From IMG/VR virus record IMGVR_UViG_2548876863_000020, positions 1 to 10,296 of that record: a stretch of DNA of 10,296 nt; one strand, 5' to 3'. This document shows positions 1 through 10,296 of the stretch, one piece after another. Every line of letters starts with the position of its first letter. The stretch's first letter is position 1. The DNA is from a virus (taxonomy: Duplodnaviria; Heunggongvirae; Uroviricota; Caudoviricetes). Below the pieces are notes generated by a model, which was not told the DNA's origin, ran no database searches, and saw only the letters and a list, made by a program, of their open reading frames with translations. The position numbers were made by a program, and so were the translations under genes.

Positions 1-201
1 TTACCCATTGGCGCGGCTTAAGAGCTTATTTTTGAATTCACAATGGTCACGATATAACCATCTTGCTCGCCCGTGGATAACTTTGGCTTTAGGCAGGTCT
101 CCGGACTTAATCCGGTCATAGATGAAGGTTTTACCGAAGCCAGTATCAGCCATGATGAATTTCAAATCAACCAGTGAATCAGGCTGTAGTTCGTGTTGCA
201 T
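1..201 (-). CDS. Excisionase-like / AlpA-family small DNA-binding protein (66 aa)
   Basis: Complete ORF, ATG at 201..199 with GGAGA 8 nt upstream, stop at window base 1. Motif IMADTGFGKTFIYDRIKSGDLPKAKVIHGRARW matches the winged-helix AlpA/Xis pattern (TG..K.TIY..I..G.FP..K.G.R..W). Sits at the distal end of the leftward operon where lambdoid phages carry xis next to int. Confidence 0.6.
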   Translation of the reverse strand: MQHELQPDSLVDLKFIMADTGFGKTFIYDRIKSGDLPKAKVIHGRARWLYRDHCEFKNKLLSRANG

Positions 202-242
202 GAGTGCTATCTCCGAATAGGGAATCGAACCTGCAAATCAGG

Positions 243-266
243 CAATAAAAAACCGCATTGATGCGG
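243..266 (-). terminator. Putative intrinsic terminator (minus strand)
   Basis: Minus-strand RNA CCGCA-UCAA-UGCGG followed by UUUUUUAUUG; 5-bp GC-rich stem plus U6 tract, between the 114-aa gene and xis. Confidence 0.4.
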
Positions 267-323
267 CGATGGTAGGTCTGGATATCTTGATAAATGAAAA
301 TGCCTCATCGAGTGTGAGGCGGG

Positions 324-668
324 TTAGTCCTTGCGTAGCTCGCTGATTCTTCTGTAAGTCTCTGGTGCTTTGTTCCCGTACGTCTTCATTTCAGACTTCA
401 ACAGAGCAACGAGTGAATCCCATTCGTTGAGGATTCCTTTGAATGCCGGAACGCGCTTTGCAACCTTGTCGAATGAATCTCTGATTTCTGGAATCTGCTC
501 AACAAGTGCAACGCATCGTCGGAAATCTGCTGCGTCATGTGGAGCGCCGAAGTGATGACCATAGATATTCTTTTTCAGTCCACATGCGATTGAGGCAATA
601 GTTGCGCTACTGATGCCGACATCGCCAGTCGATTGCCATTTCAAAACCTTCATAGCCAAATCTGACAT
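324..668 (-). CDS. Hypothetical protein (114 aa)
   Basis: ORF-track frame 324..695; start refined to ATG 668..666 (MSDLAMKVLKW...) because GGAG lies 8 nt upstream and the upstream extension would run through a terminator hairpin. No family recognised. Confidence 0.6.
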   Translation of the reverse strand: MSDLAMKVLKWQSTGDVGISSATIASIACGLKKNIYGHHFGAPHDAADFRRCVALVEQIPEIRDSFDKVAKRVPAFKGILNEWDSLVALLKSEMKTYGNKAPETYRRISELRKD

Positions 669-675
669 TTCTTGT

Positions 676-702
676 CTCCAATAAAAAACCGCCATCAGGC
701 GG
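676..702 (-). terminator. Putative intrinsic terminator (minus strand)
   Basis: Minus-strand RNA CCGCC-UGAU-GGCGG followed by UUUUUUAUUGG. The stop codon TGA of the 55-aa ORF lies in the loop. Confidence 0.5.
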
Positions 703-862
703 CTTGGTGTTCTTTCAGTTCTTCAATTCGAATATTGGTTACGTCTGCATGTGCTATCTGCGCCCATATCATCCAGTGGTTATAACAGTCGTTGATGTTC
801 TCTGCTTCGATAACCCTGTTGAATGGTTCTCCATTCCATTCACCTGTGACTCGGAAGTGCAT
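695..862 (-). CDS. Small hypothetical protein (55 aa), below the ORF-track size cutoff
   Basis: ATG 862..860 with GGAG 7 nt upstream; translates MHFRVTGEWNGEPFNRVIEAENINDCYNHWMIWAQIAHADVTNIRIEELKEHQAA; stop 697..695 inside the terminator hairpin. Confidence 0.4.
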   Translation of the reverse strand: MHFRVTGEWNGEPFNRVIEAENINDCYNHWMIWAQIAHADVTNIRIEELKEHQAA

Positions 863-870
863 TTATCATC

Positions 871-900
871 TCCATAAAACAAAACTCGCCGTAGCGAGTT
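871..900 (-). terminator. Putative intrinsic terminator (minus strand)
   Basis: Minus-strand RNA AACUCGC-UACG-GCGAGUU (7-bp stem) followed by UUGUUUUAUGG, about 43 nt downstream of the 63-aa ORF. Confidence 0.5.
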
Positions 901-942
901 CAGATAAAAGAAATCCATCAATTGGTTAGGGTTTTTGTAATT

Positions 943-1134
943 CTACGAATTATGTTGTTTTTTAGCTTCAGCTTTCCATTCATCAAAGGCAGTGTCTTTG
1001 TTCATGGTGCTGATATTGATCTTACGGTCAATATCATATACACGCCACTCACCGTTAGGCCTCTCTTCGCATCTAACTAAGTATGAATTGCCATTAATAT
1101 CTATGCGTCTGTCTATTTGCATGAACATTTTCAA
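943..1134 (-). CDS. Small hypothetical protein (about 61-63 aa)
   Basis: ORF-track frame. Start ambiguous: TTG 1134 has AGAGGA 8 nt upstream; in-frame ATGs at 1128 and 1122. No family recognised. Confidence 0.5.
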   Translation of the reverse strand: MKMFMQIDRRIDINGNSYLVRCEERPNGEWRVYDIDRKINISTMNKDTAFDEWKAEAKKQHNS

Positions 1135-1245
1135 TTTTCGAATCCTCTTTAATATGCATTTTTTGCTATTTCAGTAGTTTACTATTGATGAGGCGTTATT
1201 ATACACACTTCATTAATGCAAGCATCTTTATGCTATGCTACTAAT

Positions 1246-1527
1246 TTAGCAATTGATATTCACCTTTATCGCGTATACCTTTACCGGCTTATCACCGAAG
1301 TGGGGGTGTGTGATTGTTTTCACTTCATATCCTCCATACGGAACATCAATTCTGCGACTGGAGTCGTCGCGCTTCGGATATCCCTTTGTGATAATCAGGC
1401 GGTCATACTCCCGGAACATAATTCGCTTATTCCAATAGTCATTACACAGGCGATACTCTTCCGTTTTCTCTCCTCGAATCATGGCATCGAAGTATTCACC
1501 TTTGACGGCAAGTTGTAGGTTAGCCAC
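1246..1527 (-). CDS. ASCH/DUF3850-like (PUA-fold) protein, tentative (93 aa)
   Basis: GTG start 1527..1525 with AGGAGG 6 nt upstream; overlaps the upstream gene stop by 8 nt. N-terminal pattern L.L.VKGEYFDAMIRGEKTEEYR resembles ASCH/DUF3850 as recalled; not verified by search. Confidence 0.4.
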   Translation of the reverse strand: MANLQLAVKGEYFDAMIRGEKTEEYRLCNDYWNKRIMFREYDRLIITKGYPKRDDSSRRIDVPYGGYEVKTITHPHFGDKPVKVYAIKVNINC

Positions 1528-1822
1528 GGTTAACCTCCTGCGGAGTAGCCTTTACAAGCACTGGTGCAAATCCATCTTCATTAAGGTTATGAATATAGAC
1601 TTCTGTTCTCCTGCGCTCTTCAACGTTTAATATTGTTTCTGGATCATAAACCCATACTTTCATTCGACTATTCCATGAAGAAATCGCTTCAGATCTAGTT
1701 CGTTTTTCTGGTCCTTGGGCACCACATTTGCATGACACATAGCGCATTTTCCCTCTGATACTGAATGAGTATCCGATGTTAAGCACAGTGGAACCACAGA
1801 ATGGGCAGCGATATAGATTCAT
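1520..1822 (-). CDS. Zinc-ribbon protein, Lar-like restriction-alleviation family candidate (100 aa)
   Basis: ATG 1822..1820 with AGGTGG upstream and ATGA overlap with the upstream gene. N-terminal CPFCG...CKCG four-cysteine ribbon is the motif I associate with the Lar family; the C-terminal 50 aa is an unrecognised extension. Confidence 0.45.
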   Translation of the reverse strand: MNLYRCPFCGSTVLNIGYSFSIRGKMRYVSCKCGAQGPEKRTRSEAISSWNSRMKVWVYDPETILNVEERRRTEVYIHNLNEDGFAPVLVKATPQEVNRG

Positions 1823-2520
1823 AAATCATCCACCTTAGGCGCAGCTGAGACAGCAACATTCCAGAACTCAGAAAACATATTGTATGCACCAGATAGATTG
1901 GAAGTGGCATACCCTCCAAGCTCACTTCTAATCTGAACGGCTCTCATCATTTCCGGTGTTAACTCCTTCGGCACCATAACCCAACCATCCGGAGTTACCG
2001 GAGAGTTGCCATCCAGCGCGTTCAACTTGTAAGCCTGGCTTACAGGTTCGGCTTCCAGTTCTGCTATGCGCTTCTCTGATGCTTCAAGTAACGCCTGCTT
2101 ATCGCGTAGCGCTTCTTCCAGTTCAGCAACATGGCACTCACTATCAATAAGGTTGTTCTCTGCGGCTTCCAGCTCAACACGCAGCTTCCCTACCGTTAGC
2201 GCAATATCCTCGTTCTCCTGATCACGGTTTTTGATGTATTGCTGGTTTCTTTCCCGTTCATCCAGCAGTGCCAGCACGGTAGCCGGATTGGCTGCAGCGA
2301 TGAATTCAGCATTGGCCTGCTGTTCCATTTGGAAATCTTCATCGAAACCGCTTTCAGGATGCGCTCCTTCAATTCTGCAAATAGGAATATATCCAGCAAC
2401 TTCACGATGAATTAGCGCATCATCACCATCAAATCGGCTTTCTCCATATTCGAGCGACCACTCACCACACGTTGCTTTTTCTGCCGCTTCACGCAGTGCC
2501 TGATAGTTAATTTTGGTCAT
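1819..2520 (-). CDS. Ead/Ea22-like family protein (233 aa), tentative
   Basis: ATG 2520..2518 with GGGTGA upstream. N-terminal INYQALREAAEKAT and internal LLDERERNQQYIKNRDQENEDIALTVGKLRVELE coiled coil resemble lambda Ea22-like proteins as recalled. Confidence 0.5.
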   Translation of the reverse strand: MTKINYQALREAAEKATCGEWSLEYGESRFDGDDALIHREVAGYIPICRIEGAHPESGFDEDFQMEQQANAEFIAAANPATVLALLDERERNQQYIKNRDQENEDIALTVGKLRVELEAAENNLIDSECHVAELEEALRDKQALLEASEKRIAELEAEPVSQAYKLNALDGNSPVTPDGWVMVPKELTPEMMRAVQIRSELGGYATSNLSGAYNMFSEFWNVAVSAAPKVDDL

Positions 2521-2521
2521 A

Positions 2522-2821
2522 TCACATCACCCTGAAGCCGTTGCATTTACGTAAGAAATCGCAGATATAGCCCTTCATTTTTTCATGCCAATCTCGATCA
2601 TTCCCATTGCACCAACCATCAGGTGGAGTCCAGTTTTCTATCAGAGCAGCCATTTTCTTTGCTTTCGCCGGAGTAGCTGTTGCGGTATCGCAGTAATGAC
2701 GAGTGTCAACCAACGCATCCATACCATCGATATCAAGTACGCAAAACCATGTGTGATTCGGCATTTCAACAGATGGTATTTGTTGCCCACGTCGACGTTT
2801 ATCAATAAGACATACAGTCAC
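2522..2821 (-). CDS. Hypothetical Cys/His-rich protein (99 aa)
   Basis: ORF-track frame 2522..2854; start refined to GTG 2821..2819 because AAAGGAGG lies 6 nt upstream and it forms a GTGA overlap with the stop of the 210-aa gene. Confidence 0.55.
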   Translation of the reverse strand: MTVCLIDKRRRGQQIPSVEMPNHTWFCVLDIDGMDALVDTRHYCDTATATPAKAKKMAALIENWTPPDGWCNGNDRDWHEKMKGYICDFLRKCNGFRVM

Positions 2822-3450
2822 TGGTTGCCTCCTTTGCGAAGCTGTTCCGCCCATTCTTCAAGGGATTTCTCCGCATATTCACCAGACAGGCCATCAATCG
2901 GACGCGGTTCATTAGCCAACTCTTCTTTTGCTGACAAAATCATGCGTGTAACGTCGAAAACTTCACGCAAAGACTTATTGATAAATCCGTGATTGAACGC
3001 AGCAGCAAGACGGCTGGCGGCATAGTTAATCCCCTCGTTGCGTGCTTCCGCACGTACTTCAGCAAGGAAAGCGTCGGTGGCTGGGGTATTTTCCATTAGT
3101 TTTTTTGACGTTGACCAAAGCGCGGAAAGCCACTCTTTATCAAACCATTTATCCTTATGGTGAAACATTTCATCAACTGTCTGGTGGCAGCGGGATACCT
3201 CAAAAAGGCACCGCGCATTCTCCGCCGCCAGCGCTGAAAACTTCTCGTGTGCCAACTTAACAGCCGAATCAGCCTGCTTAATTGACTCAATCGCTCTCTG
3301 TTGGTCTTCGGACAGAGCCGAAATCTTGGCCTCCGCTTCAGCAAATTTACGCACCAGATATTCAGCGTTTGTTTCGTTAACCTTTAAATCTCGTGGAATG
3401 CATTTACCTTTCAGAAAACCATCCATCTCAATTAGTGTCATTTGTTTCAT
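2818..3450 (-). CDS. Hypothetical protein (about 210 aa), predicted helical/coiled-coil
   Basis: ORF-track frame 2818..3468 (GTG); ATG 3450..3448 preferred, with GGAG about 10 nt upstream. No family recognised. Confidence 0.6.
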
Positions 3451-3607
3451 TTTTTTCCACTCCGCCACATCGCATTCAGATATTTGTTGTCATTAACAGA
3501 ACCGAAACTCTTTCTCTTAAGCAATTCCTCTCTCGATGGCATTGGTTTTACGCGTTGGCGAATAATCATTTCTGCCGGAAGAATGCCGGGATTGTATGCA
3601 AGTCCTC

Positions 3608-3889
3608 TCATGATTTACTCTCCATGAACTGGTCAACAGCCATGCTAAGTGATACACCTAACGTCTCGATATGCTGCTGAATATCCTGTAGCGTCTGCGC
3701 CTGAGATAACAGGATTTCACGGTTGCATAACTCTTTAACCAGATGCTCAAACTTGCTGTAATAACCGATACGACTGAGCGTTTCTTTCCCTGCATTCTCG
3801 CCTTCTTTGATAATTCCTCTTTCGCTAAGAATCAGGTCGTGTTTGGTTCCGGTAATAACGTATTTTCCGAGGTCGATGTTTAGCTTCAT
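3608..3889 (-). CDS. Hypothetical protein (93 aa)
   Basis: ORF-track frame, ATG 3889..3887, same strand and tight spacing with neighbours; weak RBS. No family recognised. Confidence 0.55.
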
Positions 3890-3905
3890 TGTTAATTATT
3901 CCATG

Positions 3906-4220
3906 TTAATTTATTCGTATGCCTGCTCTTTCTTCATCGAGTTTTTTTAGCTTGTATCGCATAGCCCTTACTGAATAAATTGAGCGGCAGGTTGCAATTG
4001 CTATTTCTTCTGCGGAGAACTTACCGAAAAGTGATACTTCGGCTCTTGTCCAGCGTCTTCCACGAAGTCGGCTAACAATGTCAGCTCCAATCCTTGTTGC
4101 TTTCGCCATTACTGCTTTTTCAGTCCTTTCCAGTTTTTCAGCGATAACTTCAACTGGCATTGTTGCCGCTACTTCGCACAAGAAATCGACTTCCCATTTC
4201 TCCCATGGAGTCTTTTTCAT
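3906..4220 (-). CDS. Hypothetical protein (104 aa) with an internal tandem repeat, possible DNA-binding
   Basis: Two roughly 40-aa halves share a W..EV..F...S/P.EEIA...R pattern (PWEKWEVDFLCEV...VEVIAEKLERTEKAV versus RRWTRAEVSLFGKFSAEEIAIATCRSIYSV). Confidence 0.55.
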   Translation of the reverse strand: MKKTPWEKWEVDFLCEVAATMPVEVIAEKLERTEKAVMAKATRIGADIVSRLRGRRWTRAEVSLFGKFSAEEIAIATCRSIYSVRAMRYKLKKLDEERAGIRIN

Positions 4221-4231
4221 AGTCGATACCG

Positions 4232-4720
4232 TTATTTGATAAGAAGTGAAGGTTTCCCAACTTTGAGTTGAGCGCCGGGGATATTTATTCCTGCTTTTAG
4301 TTGGTGTTTGATTGCCAGTTTGTCGGCTTTAATTGTCGTTTCAAACTCAACGTATTCAGGAGGAAGGGCGCTTGAGTCGATGATTTCTACAGTTTCTGAC
4401 GGTTTGCGGATTGTTACTTGGTGAATACCTGCTCGAATCTTTTTCTTGCCAACCATTTCAAGCGATGACGCTATATACGCCATAATGCTGTCAATCTTAT
4501 TTTGAATTACTGCGGCTCGTTCATTCAGTGACTTTGCCTCGTCCTTGAGGCGTTCAGCATAACCAGATTCATTTTTAATAATGGCGAGAAGTTGCTCTAT
4601 TTTATCGGTAAATTCTCCTTCCATTCCTTCTATTGTGTCAGCAATCATCTCTGGCTCTAAATCTGAATCCATCAATTTTGCGTATTCATTGGCTATTTCA
4701 TATAGTTTGCTCACTGGCAA
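4232..4720 (-). CDS. Coiled-coil recombination-associated protein, possibly Sipho_Gp157-like (162 aa)
   Basis: ATG 4720..4718 with GGAGG 6 nt upstream; overlaps the recT 3' end by 23 nt. Size, predicted coiled coil and position next to recT fit Gp157-family proteins; assignment is from memory only. Confidence 0.4.
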   Translation of the reverse strand: MPVSKLYEIANEYAKLMDSDLEPEMIADTIEGMEGEFTDKIEQLLAIIKNESGYAERLKDEAKSLNERAAVIQNKIDSIMAYIASSLEMVGKKKIRAGIHQVTIRKPSETVEIIDSSALPPEYVEFETTIKADKLAIKHQLKAGINIPGAQLKVGKPSLLIK

Positions 4721-5600
4721 CCTCCAGTTTCGCTTTGCATTCTATGTAAATGGCTTGTACGTTCTGCTGCAATTTCATTCCAGATGTCAGGCGATATGCT
4801 TCTGCAAAATATCGCTTCAAATCATCCATGTTTTCTGCCTGAGCCATTTCATCACAAAGAAGTTGTGCTTTTTCCATTATTTCCTGCTGGCGTTTCCGTT
4901 CATCTTCGCGGATATCTTCCTCTGATTTGTGCGGCATAACTGGTTCCTGATGCATACCTTCATCTTCGTTAAGCAGGTGAATGGCATTATCCAGTCGCTG
5001 GGCTTTAGGCCAGTATTTGCTGGCGCGTTTAACTATGGTTTTACGCGCCATCTCTTCCCAGAATGTCTTCCACGGTCCATTCTTTGCCTTGCTCGTTGCT
5101 TCCACAGCTTTAATTTCTGCCAGACTCATTTCTTCAGTCAGGTAGTCACCATCTGCTGTTTTAACCGTGCAATAACCTCCAACAATAGAGCCTCGCTCAC
5201 CAAATGCGTTGTATTTGTGGGTTGGTGCTGAATCAAGGCCATTTGATTCATAGGTGTCGTTTGAGTACACCAGTTTGCATTGCCCCCACTTAATTGATCC
5301 TGTCGATTGCGCAAGATGAAGTAATCCCATGTAACTGATATCAAGGCACACCATGCCGTCGCGAGGAACCAGATAAGCAAGTTTGCTGGCCGGGTTTAAG
5401 GTGATGCCGATCGCCGCAACATTGATGATGGCGTTCTGTGCGCTGGTTGGATTTGCCAGTGCTGTTTTAGCCAGGTAATCGTTTTTCTGGAAATACTGAA
5501 TTGCAAACTGGCTTTCCTTAGCCCATGTCACCGTCTGTTCAGTCAATGCTCCGCAGAATAACTGCTCTTGCTGTTTAACGAATTCAACGATATTGCTCAT
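4698..5600 (-). CDS. recT: RecT-family single-strand annealing recombinase (300 aa)
   Basis: ATG 5600..5598 with GGAGA 6 nt upstream. Conserved segment NGPWKTFWEEMARKTIVKRASKYWP matches the RecT signature (compare Rac RecT NGPWVTHWEEMAKKTAIRRLFKYLP, recalled). Confidence 0.85.
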   Translation of the reverse strand: MSNIVEFVKQQEQLFCGALTEQTVTWAKESQFAIQYFQKNDYLAKTALANPTSAQNAIINVAAIGITLNPASKLAYLVPRDGMVCLDISYMGLLHLAQSTGSIKWGQCKLVYSNDTYESNGLDSAPTHKYNAFGERGSIVGGYCTVKTADGDYLTEEMSLAEIKAVEATSKAKNGPWKTFWEEMARKTIVKRASKYWPKAQRLDNAIHLLNEDEGMHQEPVMPHKSEEDIREDERKRQQEIMEKAQLLCDEMAQAENMDDLKRYFAEAYRLTSGMKLQQNVQAIYIECKAKLEVASEQTI

Positions 5601-5908
5601 GCAGCTTCTCCATAAATATGTCTGCGTTTGAATATTGCGAAGGCATATTCAGCCTTAACTCTTTCGGTTATTGCATCCCAGAACCATTCAGCGGCTTTTT
5701 CCTGATAGTTACAGTCATCATCTTCCAGCCAGTCGATAGCGTCCTTAGTGTGTTCATCTGGTTTATATGAGCGAAGCATTTCGCTTATTGGGTCGCAACG
5801 TTTGCAGAGGCGATCAACTTCACTGTTGATTCGCTCGTAATCTTCATCAGTAAAACTTGCGATTATTTGCGATATTTCACGCTTATCATTCAGAGTCAGA
5901 ATCATCAT
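5597..5908 (-). CDS. Hypothetical acidic protein (103 aa), immediately upstream of and coupled to recT
   Basis: ATG 5908..5906 with AGGAG upstream; ATGA overlap with the recT start. Occupies the slot that Gam/Abc-type RecBCD inhibitors take in lambda/P22; function inferred from position only. Confidence 0.6.
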   Translation of the reverse strand: MMILTLNDKREISQIIASFTDEDYERINSEVDRLCKRCDPISEMLRSYKPDEHTKDAIDWLEDDDCNYQEKAAEWFWDAITERVKAEYAFAIFKRRHIYGEAA

Positions 5909-5989
5909 CTTTCTCCTGTTCTTTGTGCTGATTGAGCATTTTGTTCATCTGACGAATGAATTCTTCGTCTGACCAGTTATCCGTAAAAC

Positions 5990-6160
5990 TCATGGACGGC
6001 CTTGTTGTTTCAAAATATCCCAAAGCTTTTCGAGCAAACTTTTCATTCTTGGTTGTTTAAAGTCTGCTCCGGTTAAAATATTTTTTCGTGAATGCTGTAC
6101 CGATAAAATCGGGTTGAAAGGGCGAACCGATGCCGCCCCTGCAATAGCGAACTGTTGCAT
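5990..6160 (-). CDS. cIII: cIII-like protein (56 aa)
   Basis: Internal ATG 6160..6158 of the 5990..6265 frame, with AAGGAG 7 nt upstream. MQQFAIAG... start and ...SLLEKLWDILKQQGRP end resemble lambda CIII (MQYAIAG...SLLERI...RLIDILNQPGVP, recalled). The 35 codons upstream in the track ORF lack an RBS and overlap a terminator. Confidence 0.5.
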   Translation of the reverse strand: MQQFAIAGAASVRPFNPILSVQHSRKNILTGADFKQPRMKSLLEKLWDILKQQGRP

Positions 6161-6220
6161 AGGATGCTCCTTCTGTTTGATTGCATAACGAAAACGCCTC
6201 GAGTGAAGCGTTATTGGTAT

Positions 6221-6250
6221 GCATATAAAAAGGCCCTCACACTGGAGGGC
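6221..6250 (-). terminator. Putative intrinsic terminator (minus strand) upstream of cIII
   Basis: Minus-strand RNA GCCCUC-CAGUGU-GAGGGC followed by CUUUUUAUAU. Confidence 0.5.
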
Positions 6251-6384
6251 AAAGAAGATTTCCAATAATCAGAACAAGTCGGCTCCTGTTTAGTTACGAG
6301 CGACATTGCTCCGTGTATTCACTCGTTGGAATGAATACACAGTGCAGTGTTTATTCTGTTGTTTATGCCAAAAATAAAGGCCGA

Positions 6385-7008
6385 CTATGCGGCTTCGGAA
6401 GGAAGTCCAATCATCTTATTCAAATCTTCTACCCGTAAAGCAGGAAGTGCTGTACTTGCTTTATCTGCTTCTTTTGGTAGCAATTCTTTGCTTTCAGGCC
6501 AAACTTCAATAAGTCGCTTAACTGTTGTGACTGAGTTCAAAGCAGCCCATACATTTGATTCGATATCCTTTTTCAAGGCTTCAAGGTTTTGTTGCAATGC
6601 GCAGATTTCATCAAACCTTTTTGTTATTTCGTGTTCTGCGTCAAACATGCATTTATCTTTAGTCGGAGTAGGGAGCAATATATCTTCTCCGTTGCCGTCT
6701 TTCCCATATGAATGCCATCCAACCCTTCTGCCAGATACAGTCAGATAAATCGAAGTAGAACGAACATCGCATGAGTAAAATGAACATCCCAGCTTTTCAA
6801 GTTCTTCACTTATAGCTACTAACTTGGATGATAACTGATCCACTTCCTCAGTTTTATTTTTACCGCCAAACGCAATAACTCTGGCGTCAAGTGCAAGCTG
6901 GTTCTTTAACTTTGTTACTTCTTCAAGTTCAGTGAAAACCCCAGACTTAATTAAAGCGTTACGAGCGATTTTCTCTTTCATTCTCGTAGTTAAGCGGATT
7001 GATGACAT
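6385..7008 (-). CDS. Hypothetical protein (207 aa)
   Basis: ORF-track frame 6385..7023 (TTG); ATG 7008..7006 preferred, with GAGAGGT upstream. Lies between ral-like and cIII-like. No family recognised. Confidence 0.65.
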   Translation of the reverse strand: MSSIRLTTRMKEKIARNALIKSGVFTELEEVTKLKNQLALDARVIAFGGKNKTEEVDQLSSKLVAISEELEKLGCSFYSCDVRSTSIYLTVSGRRVGWHSYGKDGNGEDILLPTPTKDKCMFDAEHEITKRFDEICALQQNLEALKKDIESNVWAALNSVTTVKRLIEVWPESKELLPKEADKASTALPALRVEDLNKMIGLPSEAA

Positions 7009-7021
7009 ATTAATACCTCTC

Positions 7022-7054
7022 AAATAAGAAAATAAAGGCCACCATCAGGCAGCC
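7022..7054 (-). terminator. Putative intrinsic terminator (minus strand) after ral-like gene
   Basis: Minus-strand RNA GGCUGCC-UGAU-GGUGGCC (7 bp including two G-U pairs) followed by UUUAUUUUCUUAUUU; the ral-like stop TGA is in the loop. Confidence 0.45.
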
Positions 7055-7245
7055 TTGTTGTTCTGTTTACCAAGTTCTCTGGCAATCATTGCCGTAGTTC
7101 GTATTGCCCATTTATCGACATATTTCCCATCCTCCATTACAGGAAGCATTTCTTCAGGCTTAACCATGCATTCCGATTGCAGCTTGCATCCATTGCATCG
7201 CTTGAATTGTCCACACCATTGATTTTTATCAATAGTCGTAGTCAT
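7045..7245 (-). CDS. ral: Ral-like restriction-alleviation protein (66 aa), cysteine-rich
   Basis: ATG 7245..7243. Sequence MTTTIDKNQWCGQFKRCNGCKLQSEC... matches my recollection of lambda Ral closely, and it lies downstream of N in the pL operon as ral does in lambda. Not verified by search. Confidence 0.5.
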   Translation of the reverse strand: MTTTIDKNQWCGQFKRCNGCKLQSECMVKPEEMLPVMEDGKYVDKWAIRTTAMIARELGKQNNKAA

Positions 7246-7323
7246 ACGGATAGTCCTGGTATTGTTCCATCACATCCTGCGGATGCTCTTCGAACTCTTC
7301 AAATTCTTCTTCCATATCTCACC

Positions 7324-7623
7324 TCAAATAAGTGGTTTGCTGCCTAATTTCATTTTCTGGCAACCAACACAAGTCACACCCATTTCACTGCGTGGCTTGC
7401 GGTAGTAAATACGGTTCTGTTTACGCTCGACTTCTTCTTTCTTCTTGCAGCAAAGGCTTCCTAGCGATGCTGCTTTGTCTGCTCTGACGCAACCAGAGAG
7501 CTTTAGCGCAATTTTTCGCGCCAGTCGCTGCTCTTGCATCGCCTGTTCACGTTGAGCCTGTCTGCGTGCTCTGCGGCGATTTCTGGCGTTATCGTCAGCC
7601 AGATATGTAATGACTACTGTCAT
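7324..7623 (-). CDS. N: Antitermination protein N (99 aa)
   Basis: ATG 7623..7621 with GGAGG 5 nt upstream (track ORF extends further with a non-ATG start). Arginine-rich motif NARNRRRARRQAQREQ near the N-terminus; C-terminus ERKQNRIYYRKPRSEMGVTCVGCQKMKLGSKPLI parallels lambda N (ERKNQRTWYSKPGERGITCSGRQKIKGKSIPLI, recalled). Confidence 0.85.
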   Translation of the reverse strand: MTVVITYLADDNARNRRRARRQAQREQAMQEQRLARKIALKLSGCVRADKAASLGSLCCKKKEEVERKQNRIYYRKPRSEMGVTCVGCQKMKLGSKPLI

Positions 7624-7678
7624 GTTGACCTCCGATGAAACAACTTTGGAATTGATAGTGATTGCAAAGTGGTTTCTG

Positions 7679-7707
7679 GCCCCTCGAACTGAGGGGCAGA
7701 AAGAGCA
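7679..7707 (-). promoter_or_regulatory. GC-rich hairpin with boxA-like flank in the N leader (function uncertain)
   Basis: Minus-strand RNA UGCUCUUUCU then GCCCCUC-AGUUC-GAGGGGC (7-bp perfect stem), about 55 nt upstream of the N start; no U tract after it, so not a classical terminator. Confidence 0.35.
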
Positions 7708-7936
7708 TCTCGCCACCTAATAGGTCGATGCTCGGATCGAGAGATTTAATTAACCTCGGTTTTGAAGTTATGCATTCACATAAATCCTCCTACCTCTTGT
7801 GCAGCTTTCTTGAATATGGTGGCGGCTGCATAACGCCTATGGAATTGACTTTGGCGGTGACGCGCCGGGTGCTTATCTTCCGGTTGCCGTCGTGCAGCTG
7901 CACTTCACGTCACCCCAAAGCCAACTACTCTTTGGT

Positions 7937-7978
7937 TCCCGCATTTCGGCGGGACAATCCCATCAATGTTAAAGAGCA
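7937..7978 (-). promoter_or_regulatory. nutL (boxA + boxB)
   Basis: Minus-strand RNA UGCUCUUUAAC (boxA-like; consensus CGCUCUUUA) followed after 14 nt by hairpin UCCCGC-CGAAAU-GCGGGA. The same boxA plus identical boxB occurs in the same transcript orientation downstream of cro. Confidence 0.7.
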
Positions 7979-8023
7979 TGCCAATCTGTTCCGTTTGGCT
8001 ACCAGCGTCCTGCTGATGGCTAA

Positions 8024-8052
8024 AGAATACTGTAGGTATTTTATTGTGTAAA
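8024..8052 (-). promoter_or_regulatory. pL candidate (-35 TTTACA, 17-nt spacer, -10 TATTCT on minus strand)
   Basis: Read on the minus strand: TTTACA (plus 8047-8052), spacer of 17, TATTCT (plus 8024-8029). Same -10 hexamer as the pR candidate; overlaps OL1, about 40 nt upstream of nutL. Confidence 0.45.
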
Positions 8053-8110
8053 TACCCAAGGTATTTATTTTTGGTGAAATAATGATAAGCAAATGAATAC
8101 AAAGGATATT
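8026..8110. promoter_or_regulatory. OL operator cluster (three 15-bp palindromic sites)
   Basis: AATAC-TGTAG-GTATT (8026-8040), AATAC-CCAAG-GTATT (8051-8065), AATAC-AAAGG-ATATT (8096-8110). Same AATAC-N5-GTATT motif as in the cI-cro intergenic region. Confidence 0.6.
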
Positions 8111-8197
8111 TATTTTTTTCGGTGTCTGCTTGTTCAGTGCTTTTTATGCGGGATATGTGAAGTGGATCCCGATAGCTATTGCTGCCGGGATTATGAG

Positions 8198-8566
8198 TTA
8201 GTCAGCGAAGGTTAAGACGAGAATTACCTTAATGATGTCTGCTACAACAGACACGGCCATAGATAAACCAAAGACGATCCAAGCCATAGAGATGTCTTCA
8301 CTACCATCGTATAGAGTTCCGTAATCACTGGTGTAAGGCGTAAATGTCGCGCCTTGATACAACAGGTATAAGCTTGAACCATAGAGGATAAATGCAGATA
8401 TCCCTTGTATTGCTATGATCACTAGAATCATGAAACGAGCTGATCTATGCGCCCAAGCCTGGCTTATTTTTTCTGATAGAGATTTCGCAATAAAAGCATG
8501 CGCTAAGCCGTAAATTGTCGAGATTGCCAACATCCCAAAAAAGCTTGCTATAGCGGTTCCAACCAT
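8198..8566 (-). CDS. Small integral membrane protein (about 122 aa, three predicted TM helices) co-transcribed downstream of cI
   Basis: ORF-track frame 8198..8587 (TTG overlapping the cI stop); ATG 8566..8564 with AAGGGG upstream is the more likely start. Three hydrophobic stretches of roughly 25 residues each. No terminator between it and cI. Confidence 0.65.
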   Translation of the reverse strand: MVGTAIASFFGMLAISTIYGLAHAFIAKSLSEKISQAWAHRSARFMILVIIAIQGISAFILYGSSLYLLYQGATFTPYTSDYGTLYDGSEDISMAWIVFGLSMAVSVVADIIKVILVLTFAD

Positions 8567-8583
8567 AAGCGCCCCTTGCGTGA

Positions 8584-9300
8584 TCAAACCAGCCTTAGTT
8601 TTGTCTCAATTGCAACGCCTATAATCTTGCAGTTTCCATTGATTGGCACGAGAGGCCATGCAGGGTTAAGTCCCTTGAGGTATTTATTTCCGCCGTCGAT
8701 TATCAGCTTCTTGAATGTTGCTTCGTTAGAGTCAGAAAGTTTTGCTATGACCAAGCTGCCGTTGATCGCCTCCCTTCCGGTATCGAAAAGAACGAATGTT
8801 CCCTCTGGAATGCTTAACCCAACCGGTGCCGTCATTGAATCACCTTCCACTTTAAGCCAGAACGCATTACCTTGAATATGCGCGTCAGACTCAAGCCAAA
8901 CATCTATGTCTTTAATGGTGTATGGTTCGCATGCTTCACACCACGAGCCAGCCTGGATACTGCTTAACACCGGATACCTCTTTCCTGCTCTGTATTCCCC
9001 TGCATACCTTACGTTGGCATCGCTCTTAAGGCTTTCTGCCTGTTCTGCAACCTTGGCAGCAATTGACTGGCTAAAATCAGCAATTGAGACTTGCAACAGT
9101 CGTGCAAAACCAGATGCAACCTCAACGTTTAGCGCGTTTCTGCCATTAAGATAATGCCCTACCGCTCCTTGGGTGATACCCAGTTCATCAGCGATTGAGT
9201 ATTGGGTTATTCCCAATTCTTTCTTTTTTGACTCATACAAAGCCTTAAGCCGCTTAGCGTCTTCGAGCTGTTCTGTCGTCAGTGATTTTTTATTTTCCAT
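8584..9300 (-). CDS. cI: CI-type prophage repressor (238 aa), HTH plus S24 autopeptidase domain
   Basis: Strong resemblance to lambda CI as recalled (LTTEQLEDAKRLKALYESKKKELG...). Ala-Gly cleavage site in IQAGSW, catalytic Ser in EGDSMTAP, Lys in TFKKLI. Divergent from cro with operators between them. Confidence 0.95.
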   Translation of the reverse strand: MENKKSLTTEQLEDAKRLKALYESKKKELGITQYSIADELGITQGAVGHYLNGRNALNVEVASGFARLLQVSIADFSQSIAAKVAEQAESLKSDANVRYAGEYRAGKRYPVLSSIQAGSWCEACEPYTIKDIDVWLESDAHIQGNAFWLKVEGDSMTAPVGLSIPEGTFVLFDTGREAINGSLVIAKLSDSNEATFKKLIIDGGNKYLKGLNPAWPLVPINGNCKIIGVAIETKLRLV

Positions 9301-9306
9301 AGCTTA

Positions 9307-9335
9307 ATTCTAATAGCTAAGGTACTTAAACTAAA
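9307..9335 (-). promoter_or_regulatory. pRM candidate, leaderless or near-leaderless cI transcript
   Basis: On the minus strand, TAGAAT (plus 9307-9312) ends 6 nt before the cI ATG and there is no Shine-Dalgarno, as for lambda pRM; the -35 is weak (TTTAGT). Confidence 0.35.
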
Positions 9336-9375
9336 AATACCCTAAGTATTGATTGCTTTGAATACCTGTAGTATT
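9312..9375. promoter_or_regulatory. OR operator cluster (OR3, OR2, OR1)
   Basis: AATAG-CTAAG-GTACT (9312-9326), AATAC-CCTAA-GTATT (9336-9350), AATAC-CTGTA-GTATT (9361-9375); centre-to-centre spacing 24-25 bp. Confidence 0.65.
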
Positions 9376-9377
9376 CT
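9349..9377 (+). promoter_or_regulatory. pR candidate (-35 TTGATT, 17-nt spacer, -10 TATTCT)
   Basis: -35 at 9349-9354 overlaps OR2; -10 at 9372-9377 overlaps OR1; about 30 nt upstream of the cro start. Confidence 0.5.
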
Positions 9378-9406
9378 TTGTTCATGGTTAATAACGGAGA
9401 GTGCAT

Positions 9407-9601
9407 ATGATTCGAATGACACTTGCCGATTACGCCAAAATCCATGGACAGGCTAAAGCAGCCAGTGACTTTGGTGTAATCCAGTGCGCTATCAGCAAGG
9501 CCATTCTGGCAGGCCGTAACATTATGGTTACGGTAAAGCCTGATGGCAGTGTGATTGGAGAGGAAGTTCGTCCTTTCCCAAGCAACAAGAAAAACAAATA
9601 G
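9407..9601 (+). CDS. cro: Cro repressor (64 aa)
   Basis: ATG 9407 with GGAGA 6 nt upstream (track ORF begins at GTG 9401). Resembles lambda Cro as recalled (ITLKDYA..FGQTK.A.DLGV.QSAINKAI.AGR...DGSV..EEV.PFPSNKK). Confidence 0.9.
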
Positions 9602-9607
9602 TAACAC

Positions 9608-9652
9608 CGCTCTTTAACAGTCATGGTCCTCATTCCCGCCGAAATGCGGGAA
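9608..9652 (+). promoter_or_regulatory. nutR (boxA + boxB)
   Basis: CGCTCTTTA at 9608-9616 (boxA consensus), then hairpin TTCCCGC-CGAAAT-GCGGGAA at 9633-9652, identical to the nutL boxB, immediately after the cro stop. Confidence 0.75.
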
Positions 9653-9658
9653 TACAAC

Positions 9659-9690
9659 GCGCACAAGTTGATGCGCATAACTTCTTATTA
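9659..9690 (+). terminator. tR1 candidate
   Basis: Hairpin GCGCA-caagttga-TGCGC followed by a moderately U-rich AUAACUUCUUAUU, between nutR and cII. Weak as an intrinsic terminator; could be Rho-dependent as in lambda. Confidence 0.3.
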
Positions 9691-9709
9691 GTTAAGGAAA
9701 TACTTACAT

Positions 9710-9988
9710 ATGCAACTTACAAGTACTCGCAAGAAAGCGAATGCAATTACAAGCAACATCCTGAATCGAATTGCTGTACGTGGTCAGCGAAAGGTTGCCG
9801 ACGCGTTAGGGATTAATGAATCGCAAATTTCGCGATGGAAAGACAGCTTCATCCCAAAAATGGGAATGCTTCTGGCTGTTCTTGAATGGGGTGTTGAAGA
9901 CGAGGAGTTGGCGGAACTGGCTAAGAAAGTAGCCAGAATGCTGACAAAAGAAAAAGCCCCGAAGAACGGCGAATTCTTCGAGGCCTGA
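9710..9988 (+). CDS. cII: CII transcriptional activator (92 aa)
   Basis: ATG 9710 with AAGGAAA upstream. Resembles lambda CII as recalled (KSQISRWK....[14 protein letters not shown]...A.LA..VA..LT). Confidence 0.9.
9944..9980 (-). terminator. oop-like antisense terminator inside the cII 3' end
   Basis: Minus-strand RNA CGAAGAA-UUCGCCG-UUCUUCG (7-bp stem) followed by GGGCUUUUUCUUUUG; position matches the lambda oop RNA terminator. Confidence 0.35.
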
Positions 9989-10022
9989 TGTAGAAAGACT
10001 GGATCAATCCACAGGAGTAATT

Positions 10023-10169
10023 ATGACAAAACAACTCAGTCCTTACCAGGACAAAATTCACAAACACATACTACGTGATCGCTTCCTGTCCAGCTTCAAG
10101 CAGCCTGGTCGATTCCGGGCTGAGTTGGAAAAAGTGAAGCTGATGCAGAAGGAGAAAGGTCATGAGTAA
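10023..10169 (+). CDS. Small hypothetical protein (48 aa), below the ORF-track cutoff
   Basis: ATG 10023 with AGGAG 6 nt upstream; translates [48 protein letters not shown]; stop 10167-10169. Confidence 0.4.
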
Positions 10170-10296
10170 TCTTGCAACCGTAACACATTTAAGGCCTTCA
10201 CAACGGCCTGTGGAGCGTCGTGTGGCAGAAGTTGAAGATGGTTATACTGAACCGCCCCGGGAATCCTGGAGACTAAACTCCCTGAGAAAGAGGTAA
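10162..10296 (+). CDS. Small ORF (44 aa) with an N-terminus reminiscent of replication protein O; ends at the window edge
   Basis: ATG 10162 with AGGAG upstream, overlapping the previous stop by 8 nt. [10 protein letters not shown]...[11 protein letters not shown] parallels lambda O MTNTAKILNF...RNVADLDDGYA (recalled); stop TAA at 10294-10296. Every forward frame has a stop in the last 60 nt. Confidence 0.4.

Follow-up and report, generated by a model that had tools for sequence, protein, structure and literature searches.

The stretch of DNA that we have analysed, hereafter the window, is the whole of positions 1 to 10,296 of the IMG/VR virus record IMGVR_UViG_2548876863_000020 (Caudoviricetes; 10,296 nucleotides). 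It comprises the early-left arm and the immunity region of a lambdoid prophage of the HK620/HK140/Sf6-like type, and nearly all of its genes lie on the minus strand. Two hairpins of this window, each followed by a run of T, are the subject of this work: hairpin A, at the 3' end of orf55, and hairpin B, at the 3' end of the restriction-alleviation gene ral. Both are probably intrinsic terminators of the leftward early (pL) operon that serve at the same time as fixed borders of promoterless single-gene cassettes open to exchange. We regard them as a good example of an established principle and not as a new mechanism. The anatomy of the hairpins, their conservation, the positions of the junctions, the recurrence of hairpins at the ends of unrelated genes and the direct repeats around the cassettes are observed directly. 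The features needed from the outset are these:

695-862, minus strand: orf55 (55 aa), homologue of lambda lambdap35 (phrog_676), ending in EHQAA and the stop
676-705, minus strand: terminator A, with 5' arm GCCGCC (703-698), loop TGAT (697-694), 3' arm GGCGG (693-689) and T6 (688-683)
7045-7245, minus strand: ral, restriction-alleviation gene (66 aa; PF11058, E = 6e-48; phrog_1055), ending in NNKAA and the stop
7022-7056, minus strand: terminator B, made of AAGGCTGCC (the last Lys-Ala-Ala codons), the loop TGAT, GGTGGCCTT and then TTTATTTT
7324-7716, minus strand: N-like antiterminator gene (phrog_271, E = 9e-38; weak PF25694 match), which defines the operon of the terminators

Each hairpin overlaps the end of its gene. 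On the minus strand orf55 ends in CAC CAA GCC GCC TGA; the last two Ala codons are the 5' arm of hairpin A, the TGA stop (697-695) is the first three bases of the TGAT tetraloop, and T6 leads into ATTGGAG, the ribosome-binding site (RBS) of the next ORF. The ral gene ends in AAC AAG GCT GCC TGA, and its stop (7047-7045) is again the first three bases of a TGAT loop. An earlier, sequence-only reading of the window had stated that both genes end in (Q/K)AA and the stop, with the TGA in the loop of a terminator, and this description is accurate (EHQAA and NNKAA, TGAT loop). It had also taken A, B and a third element, C, as terminators, in agreement with the predicted hairpins of -13.0, -13.9 and -8.3 kcal/mol, respectively, each followed by a T-run. 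The RNA fold of A has z = -2.8 versus shuffles, and that of B has z = -3.6, with none of 200 shuffles as good. Hairpin B is the first terminator-like hairpin after the N-like gene, 268 nt past its stop. Over the whole window, terminator-like sites are enriched (21 versus 9.7 +/- 2.9 in shuffles) and promoter-like sigma-70 sites are depleted (6 versus 18.8 +/- 3.6). The promoter scan found no sigma-70-like site upstream of orf55, of the 114-aa ORF and the Nmad5 gene described below, or of hairpin A or hairpin B. The HK140 GenBank record labels the hairpin A element as a rho-independent terminator, a prediction of its annotators; in lambda the element lies 40 nt upstream of xis, without annotation in NC_001416.

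Related loci were collected with orf55, ral, the 114-aa ORF or the hairpins as anchors, IMG/VR being a redundant source. Three sets of 80 loci (80 + 80 + 80) were scanned for joints, and 100 distinct orf55 3' contexts from IMG/VR and 58 distinct ral 3' contexts were compared. The 15-mer of hairpin A is identical in 86 of the 100 orf55 contexts, and variation is scarce overall, with a compensated double change (GCCTCC..GGAGG) in one locus and the corresponding uncompensated intermediate in another. Four classes of module follow this conserved hairpin, in 44, 25, 24 and 7 contexts; as a set they are lambda-type xis, HK620/TorI-type xis, AlpA-type xis and the 114-aa ORF. These modules diverge within the T-run or just past it. 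Hybrid junctions such as TTTTTTCTTGCCTGATTTG and TTTTTTCTTGCCTGGAG were seen, and the hybrid junctions between T-run and cII box fall inside shared bases. The sequences of lambda, HK140 and the window diverge immediately after GGCGGTTT, and the homology of HK140 and HK630 to the window begins at 679.

Hairpin B behaves in a similar way. The window allele is present in 39 of the 58 ral contexts and a lambda-type allele (TGATAG loop region) in 13. After the hairpin, 33 contexts continue as lambda and 25 depart into at least eight different genes, mostly 6-12 nt on (T-run) or 24 nt on (RBS). The lambda allele of the ral hairpin (AAAGCTGCCTGATAGTGGCC; L003 6388-6410, equal to lambda 34087-34110) folds with only -4.3 kcal/mol, no better than shuffles; its counterpart in the window is 7035-7056. 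The sequence-only reading had proposed that these sites are mosaic junctions, and the comparisons bear this out, since similarity to other phages extends across each hairpin and is lost in the T-run or just after it.

The same picture is given by the breakpoints, defined as the internal ends of BLAST alignments (high-scoring segment pairs) between the window and 224 unique related loci, 834 in total. They peak at 670-689 (100 breakpoints; T-run of A), 910-919 (78; terminator upstream of D), 7020-7029 (73; T-run of B), 6220-6229 (62; tL2-like hairpin region), 6380-6389 (51; hairpin G) and 230-299 (about 60; hairpin C).

Three single-gene cassettes can be delimited in the window. Those of the 114-aa ORF and of orf55 involve the following features:

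324-668, minus strand: 114-aa ORF (phrog_1229, full-length match), with its ATG at 668-666 behind GGAG
302-320, minus strand: extra hairpin after the stop of the 114-aa ORF (-9.1 kcal/mol)
243-267, minus strand: terminator C, GCCGCA TCAA TGCGGT, then a T-run and ATTG (-8.3 kcal/mol)
679-692: 14-nt direct repeat GCGGTTTTTTATTG (minus-strand reading), copy 1
243-256: copy 2 of the 14-nt direct repeat
233-245, minus strand: cII-binding box TTGC-N5-TTGC of the integration promoter pI, its position transferred from the HK620 GenBank annotation
869-901, minus strand: terminator D (hairpin 901-882), GAACTCGC TACG GCGAGTT, then TTTGTTTTATGGAGA (-11.9 kcal/mol)

A flank shared with a third terminator had been pointed out before, and it is indeed an exact 14-mer: CAATAAAAAACCGC occurs at both 243-256 and 679-692, with a period of 436 nt. 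This A-C 14-mer is a real shared junction. The 436-nt cassette between its two copies consists of the 114-aa ORF, the extra hairpin (320-302) and the 5' part of hairpin C. In other phages this cassette is precisely absent; they have a single copy of the repeat, and orf55 is joined straight to the xis module. In many phages TTTTTTATTGCCTGATTTGCAGG comes directly after hairpin A, and in the window it comes after hairpin C, from which it follows that the window carries the 436-nt cassette. Across phages, the same alternative xis modules follow terminator C and hairpin A. The repeat closes with ATTG, with which the cII box of pI begins, and this box (233-245) overlaps the last 3 nt of copy 2. Copy 1 holds the same bases as a functionless vestige of the promoter, which argues for a recombinational and not a convergent origin of the repeat.

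The 114-aa ORF probably starts at 668-666. The ORF called by the program (324-695) begins with an ATG overlapping the stop codon of orf55 (TGATG), and a start at 695 would read through terminator A; with the start at 668-666, hairpin A is intergenic on its 3' side. This ORF is preceded by hairpin A in 41 of 78 loci and by hairpin D in the other 37. In these 37 loci D is joined directly to the 114-aa ORF, without orf55 and hairpin A, and the joint lies inside TTTTAT(T)GGAGA; orf55 plus hairpin A is thus a present-or-absent cassette. It is bracketed by TTTTATGGAGA (879-869), which recurs imperfectly as TTTTATTGGAGA (686-675).

The third cassette lies behind ral and comprises:

6385-7023, minus strand: Nmad5-family gene (PF18757, 'nucleotide modification associated domain 5', E = 1.8e-69)
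6371-6393, minus strand: hairpin G (hairpin 6393-6380), weak in the window (GCCG CATAGT CGGC)
7029-7040 and 6382-6371: copies 1 and 2 of the 12-nt direct repeat GGCCTTTATTTT, with a period of 658 nt

Copy 1 of this repeat is the 3' arm plus T-run of hairpin B, and copy 2 is part of hairpin G. The Nmad5 gene ends in GAA GCC GCA TAG, i.e., in EAA, with its TAG stop (6387-6385) in the loop of G. In the window TGGCATAAACAACAGAATAAACACTGC follows repeat copy 2, and in 54 of 80 ral loci it directly follows the ral hairpin, indicating that Nmad5 is a 658-nt cassette inserted behind ral between 12-nt repeats. Nmad5 lies directly after ral, an anti-restriction gene, and together they may form a small counter-defence cluster. 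The repeats of the Nmad5, orf55 and 114-aa ORF cassettes measure 12, 11-12 and 14 nt, respectively, and the pairs of hairpins that bracket cassettes in the window are B/G, D/A and A/C, not A/B.

The sharing of hairpins among unrelated genes is most evident in two relatives of B. Hairpin F (GGCTGCC TGAT GGCGGCC plus T-run; GGCTGCCTGATGGCGGCC), one C-to-T change away from B, surfaced in a scan for a hypothetical A/B hybrid and stands behind many different genes. It lies 86-1133 nt past the N stop in 11 loci (tblastn maps), and the annotators of the mEp234 GenBank record also label it a rho-independent terminator, located after gp34 and downstream of both pL and N. Proteins of six families are read in-frame into F and finish with AA and the stop: Ral, a 55-aa orf55 homologue (phrog_676, E = 8.5e-19), phrog_2471 (83 aa), phrog_2260 (208 aa) and two proteins of 58 and 163 aa. 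They are mutually unrelated (all-against-all BLASTP E of at least 0.24); other genes end just before F. The allelic hairpin G, for its part, was seen in 112 loci at the end of 18 protein clusters, of which 10 finish in-frame with (K/E/Q)AA and the stop, and its clusters include a Ral homologue and the phrog_2471 gene, which elsewhere carries F. The remaining 8 of the 18 G-linked genes, as well as several F-linked ones, have no AA tail, their stops lying 3-9 nt ahead of the hairpin. In 38 loci there are two linker hairpins, at a distance of 247-660 nt from each other.

Several loci show further arrangements around F. In L297 (4560-4790) an orf55 homologue with 53% identity comes immediately after N and ends in the exact F hairpin without the T-run; this cassette is flanked by the 16-nt direct repeat GCATTCCCTTAATTT(G/A)AG, and the next gene (57 aa) ends in QAA with its TAG in the loop of a hairpin. 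In L296 (426-560) a 37-aa ORF ending in KKLNKAA keeps only the last ~20 nt of ral before F. This ral remnant indicates that left-hand joints can fall within the upstream gene. The fetched lambdoid loci also contain a second family of look-alike terminators, ACCCGGCC...GCCGGGTTTTCTTTT (e.g., ..AACCCGGCCTCAGCGCCGGGTTTTCTTTT..), behind varied upstream sequences, and terminator families may be general in lambdoid genomes.

As to the resemblance between A and B themselves, the minus-strand sequences 720-676 (AACTGAAAGAACACCAAGCCGCCTGATGGCGGTTTTTTATTGGAG) and 7066-7022 (ACAGAACAACAAGGCTGCCTGATGGTGGCCTTTATTTTCTTATTT) align in 22 of 26 columns with a single 1-nt gap, which substantiates the near-identity over about 26 bp noticed in the sequence-only reading. 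The 15-nt hairpin core GC(C/T)GCC TGAT GG(C/T)GG matches at 13 of 15 positions, both differences being transitions that keep G.U pairing. The best non-self match of A in the window is B, with a score of 19 tied with that of C, and only one of 60 random 10.3-kb sequences reaches 19. As a null set we have also taken 71 non-redundant terminator-like regions, natural sequences extracted from ~1 Mb of DNA that is largely lambdoid; 0.76% of the pairs score 19 or more, and the next-best match of A scores 17. Given the 8-10 minus-strand terminators of the window, ~0.2-0.35 pairs like A-B are expected. The similarity appears to continue into coding DNA (AGAACAnCAAG), a stretch that is out of frame between orf55 and ral and non-significant (P = 0.17 with shuffles, 0.14 with window 42-mers), and homology between the orf55 and Ral proteins as the source of the likeness was discarded as well (BLASTP E = 0.94, without a common Pfam or PHROG family). 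Thus, of the idea that A and B are more alike than generic terminators, the part that stands is that B is the best match of A; the rest is weakened by the natural pairs that score as high and by the non-significant coding part. On this alignment evidence, the A-B likeness would be borderline above chance, and what is specific in it is the 15-nt hairpin core.

In the 80 + 80 + 80 loci ral was never seen joined to xis or to the 114-aa ORF, and the hybrid-hairpin scans gave no A/B joint, the sequences recovered being point variants, hairpins of family F and fortuitous matches within coding DNA. In lambdoid contexts exact hairpin A is always with orf55 and never behind another gene, and the exact window form of B is always with ral. 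The claim of a gene-end module common to unrelated genes is therefore valid for the ral-type family, with F and G taken as variants of B, and fails for exact A and exact B, and the proposal that A and B of the window are duplicates of one self-moving element finds no support. Their resemblance is probably a family likeness of linkers and not the result of a recent duplication or of an exchange between the two sites. It may go back to a common descent of A and B, given the orf55 homologue with a ral-type hairpin, but the sequences would give this, at the most, an even chance, and perhaps somewhat less.

Exact copies of the hairpins outside their usual genes were also considered. Those of B behind non-ral genes are only chance matches in GC-rich coding DNA, and those of A outside orf55 amount to ~8 contexts, a number that chance could explain for an 18-mer, given the size of the collection. 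Two of these ~8 contexts resemble real terminators, in unrelated phages and before a tail-sheath-like gene. In the unrelated phage contigs L166, L171 and L189 (e.g., L189 2427-2444), exact hairpin A with its T-run lies between a proline/glutamate-repeat ORF and a 513-aa tail-sheath-like gene, and AACACC precedes it, as in orf55.

The function that we propose for these elements is as follows. Without N, transcription would stop at the hairpins: B, as the first hairpin after N, would gate the delayed-early genes, and A and C, as the last ones before pI-xis-int, would shield that region from read-through. With N, the modified polymerase would read through them, and extra terminators would have no cost for the phage. 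Promoterless cassettes, each bringing or borrowing a terminator, could accumulate in the pL operon because the N-modified polymerase would tolerate such terminators. A cassette would have the form RBS, ORF, hairpin and T-run, and each slot would have its own look-alike linkers, B, F and G downstream of N and A, C and a further one, E, upstream of pI-xis. Genes would be gained, lost or replaced by recombination within short shared bases, i.e., the 3' arm, the T-run and the RBS or cII box, and such events would leave direct repeats of 11-14 nt. The exchange would most likely proceed through the short identities that function imposes on every linker. Candidate routes would be annealing of the phage RecT/Red type, short-homology recombination and slipped mispairing at hairpins; RecET and Red are able to recombine very short or diverged homology (PMC2327257).

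Several points weigh against this proposal. Both termination and read-through by N have been deduced from the sequence only, and the degenerate ral hairpin of lambda (-4.3 kcal/mol) means that termination at that position is not universally required. Repeats of 11-14 nt are below the length that Red or RecA uses efficiently, and whether each event was an insertion or a deletion cannot be read from the data. The breakpoint histogram is biased toward these sites by the anchoring of the loci on these same genes and hairpins and by the redundancy of IMG/VR, and it has smaller peaks at gene boundaries without hairpins (1520-1549 and 7340-7349). Finally, the Juhala/Hendrix model (as summarised in PMC3233612), in which selection for intact genes acts on random joints, also places the joints between genes.

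The last point leads to the alternatives. It is unlikely that the pattern results from coincidence and selection, that is, from independently evolved terminators and random illegitimate joints that survived between genes, with no role of the hairpins in recombination. The distribution of natural terminator pairs and the breakpoints at hairpin-free boundaries would fit this explanation, whose selection-only model is established in the literature (PMC3233612, PMC3945230). It would also fit that the identical F hairpin with its T-run occurs in Clostridiales, Ruminococcus, Bdellovibrio and Pontibacter, which indicates that in very large collections the very same hairpin can have independent origins; the scan of genome contigs behind this observation gave mostly chance matches in high-GC genomes and served as a control only. 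However, coincidence does not account well for exact cassette repeats of 14 and 12 nt that include non-terminator bases, such as the cII-box vestige ATTG of copy 1, or for hybrid junctions within shared bases. Nor does it explain well that one imperfect hairpin, T.G wobble included, recurs at a fixed map position after unrelated genes, at least six for F and 18 for G, or that different genes are fused in-frame to an identical Ala-Ala-stop. A more serious possibility, still short of probable, is that A and B are copies of a single portable module (K/Q-Ala-Ala-stop, hairpin and T-run) that was moved between genes, by descent or gene conversion. Bridging variants exist: the orf55 hairpin A' of L326 and L329 has GGTGG, and the ral hairpin of L312 has GGCGGCC. 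By inspection A and F align without gaps at ~19 of 23 positions. The orf55 homologue of L297, which has the exact F hairpin in the N-proximal slot, and the many unrelated genes that end in F and G point in the same direction, as do the AA, AAS, AAN and AAH tails that recur before the stop among diverged Ral and orf55 homologues. Nevertheless, the A-B score is in the upper tail of the natural terminator pairs (0.76%), with a non-significant upstream part, and A is never behind another gene in lambdoid contexts, without any A/B hybrid or ral-xis joint. Moreover, the Klebsiella orthologue of orf55 keeps the stem and the T-run with CACTGA as the loop instead of TGAT, only 2 of 8 distant orf55 relatives end in AA, and the F hairpins of unrelated bacteria make hairpin identity alone weak evidence of descent.

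Two other explanations place the selected trait outside the DNA linker. Terminal Ala-Ala is important for recognition by ClpX, and an ssrA-like C-terminal Ala-Ala could mark the proteins for turnover by ClpXP or Tsp, the hairpin being secondary. The six families that end in AA at F, the 10 at G and the persistence of AA or AAx tails in diverged Ral and orf55 homologues would agree with it. We consider it very improbable, since the G- and F-linked genes that stop 3-9 nt before the hairpin lack the AA, the Ral proteins of Proteus and Providencia end in HS, and GCN GCC is just what a GC-rich stem encodes in one of its three frames. Of the ssrA degron, only the AA dipeptide is present, preceded by K, Q or E versus the L of the ssrA tag. 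The least probable explanation, hardly to be expected, is that the hairpins are the 3' ends of small RNAs derived from 3'-UTRs and that A and B share a seed or an Hfq-binding module. In pathogenic E. coli, prophages commonly encode small RNAs whose 3' ends are terminators (bioRxiv 10.64898/2026.05.13.724894), and tandem hairpins do occur behind the 114-aa ORF. Yet the window has no Rfam match at E <= 1 and no promoter-like site upstream of A or B, and the conserved part is the stem plus T-run and not a single-stranded seed. A stronger form of our own proposal, which we regard as quite unlikely though less so than these last two, is that the linkers are a dedicated plug-and-play system for antiterminated operons, i.e., a recombinogenic, promoterless counterpart of the PeSLs of T4, with a common short-lifetime tail. 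If this were true, recombination would proceed through hairpin-stalled replication or annealing by phage RecT, Erf or Red, and an ORF, once captured, would be supplied at a single stroke with an in-frame Lys/Gln-Ala-Ala-stop, with a terminator and with the RBS of the following gene. Through the common Ala-Ala end, any plugged-in accessory protein would then share a protease-dependent short lifetime.

Returning to the linkers as terminators and cassette edges, they can be compared with systems already described. The boundary sequences of lambdoid phages (Susskind and Botstein, 1978; Clark et al., 2001, on HK620) have been proposed as targets of homologous recombination for module exchange, as summarised in PMC3233612 and PMC2327257. 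As far as these texts describe them, they belong to the same phage group and, like our linkers, are short, lie between genes and are conserved despite differing flanking genes. Our linkers have four classes of sequence downstream of A, at least eight genes downstream of B, and at least six (F) and 18 (G) upstream protein groups, the genes downstream of F and G being varied as well. The joints also fall inside the shared sequence, as seen in the hybrid junctions and in the cassettes that are precisely absent elsewhere. Unlike the boundary sequences in general, so far as those same texts go, the linkers described here consist of a terminator hairpin, a T-run and an RBS or cII box, and they overlap the last codons of the upstream gene, whereby unrelated proteins gain the same Ala-Ala end. 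G7C-like phages, too, have been described with a stem-loop resembling a terminator at a boundary where genes are swapped (bioRxiv 10.1101/542787), and recent papers on mosaicism do not mention terminators.

The T4-type PeSL is a repeated motif of ~50 nt with a functional terminator stem-loop that brackets small non-essential ORFs in hyperplastic regions (PMC2839356, PMC4122927). Recombination between PeSLs inserts, deletes and replaces single genes, as we propose for the linkers. However, PeSLs have a strong sigma-70 early promoter and many copies per genome, whereas the lambdoid linkers are promoterless, with one or two per slot or locus, would depend on N antitermination for downstream expression and overlap coding sequence. 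Mini-circles have been shown for PeSLs. The identification as PeSL-type cassettes was thus rejected, the terminator part being present, the promoter absent and the copies only one or two per locus. Morons (Juhala et al., 2000; Hendrix et al., 2000) are likewise accessory genes between conserved genes, each with a terminator, but morons carry promoters of their own and are expressed in the prophage, whereas our cassettes are promoterless according to the scan and embedded in the pL operon; with no sigma-70-like site before orf55, the 114-aa ORF or Nmad5, they are not morons. REP- or MITE-like repeats were also discarded, since each locus of 5-15 kb has a single copy of the hairpin, invariably located at the 3' end of a gene and oriented with its transcription.

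In lambda, Luk and Szybalski are said to have described in 1982-83 the leftward terminators tL1, tL2a-d and tL3 along the pL operon, which N overrides. Like these, A and B would be intrinsic terminators spread along the pL operon and overridden by N. The window keeps, at 6250-6233, a homologue of the lambda hairpin in front of ea10/cIII. As far as could be established, A and B are not among the named lambda terminators, and the B position of lambda is degenerate; a literature search for named terminators at the A and B positions gave nothing usable.

The rest of the window provides the context of this operon, with the following additional features:

1-201: xis-like gene
4698-5600: RecT recombinase
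between RecT and orf55 in gene order: ea-type genes
6057-6224: cIII
7229-7318, minus strand: small, very acidic orf28-like ORF (MEEEFEEFEEHPQDVMEQYQDYPYDYDY), between N and ral
8584-9300: cI-like repressor
plus strand: cII and cro

The presence of genes for N, cI, cro, cII, cIII, RecT and xis corresponds to a pL-operon setting, and the homology comparison shows that the window is partly HK620-like. None of the phage records or complete E. coli genomes carries the window intact, the best cover being 63% in phages and 73% in E. coli, and the window itself is thus mosaic. Some phages lack ral and have hairpin F immediately after their homologue of the orf28-like ORF. The T-run of terminator C (window 233-256) abuts the cII box of pI, where a terminator and a cII-activated promoter share bases; lambda-type xis modules open alike, with a T-run plus TTGCGTGTAATTGC. 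The tandem hairpins 320-302 and 267-252 (window 252-320, minus strand), followed by a T-run, resemble a small RNA of ~70 nt, without an Rfam match.

These findings leave the current picture of phage biology unchanged. They do have consequences for annotation, since the 114-aa ORF should start at 668 and not at 695, and the KAA and QAA tails of different proteins are shared for reasons at the DNA level and not by homology. They also bear on an old dispute about how lambdoid phages swap genes while keeping a fixed gene order, i.e., whether by short conserved linkers or by random joints filtered by selection. For the linker view this locus offers base-resolved material, with three single-gene cassettes in 10 kb bounded by repeats of 11-14 nt and one family of hairpins that ends at least a dozen unrelated genes at the same map position, often in-frame. 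It also suggests why terminators would be tolerated as linkers in this operon, namely that N antitermination would make the extra ones free of cost.

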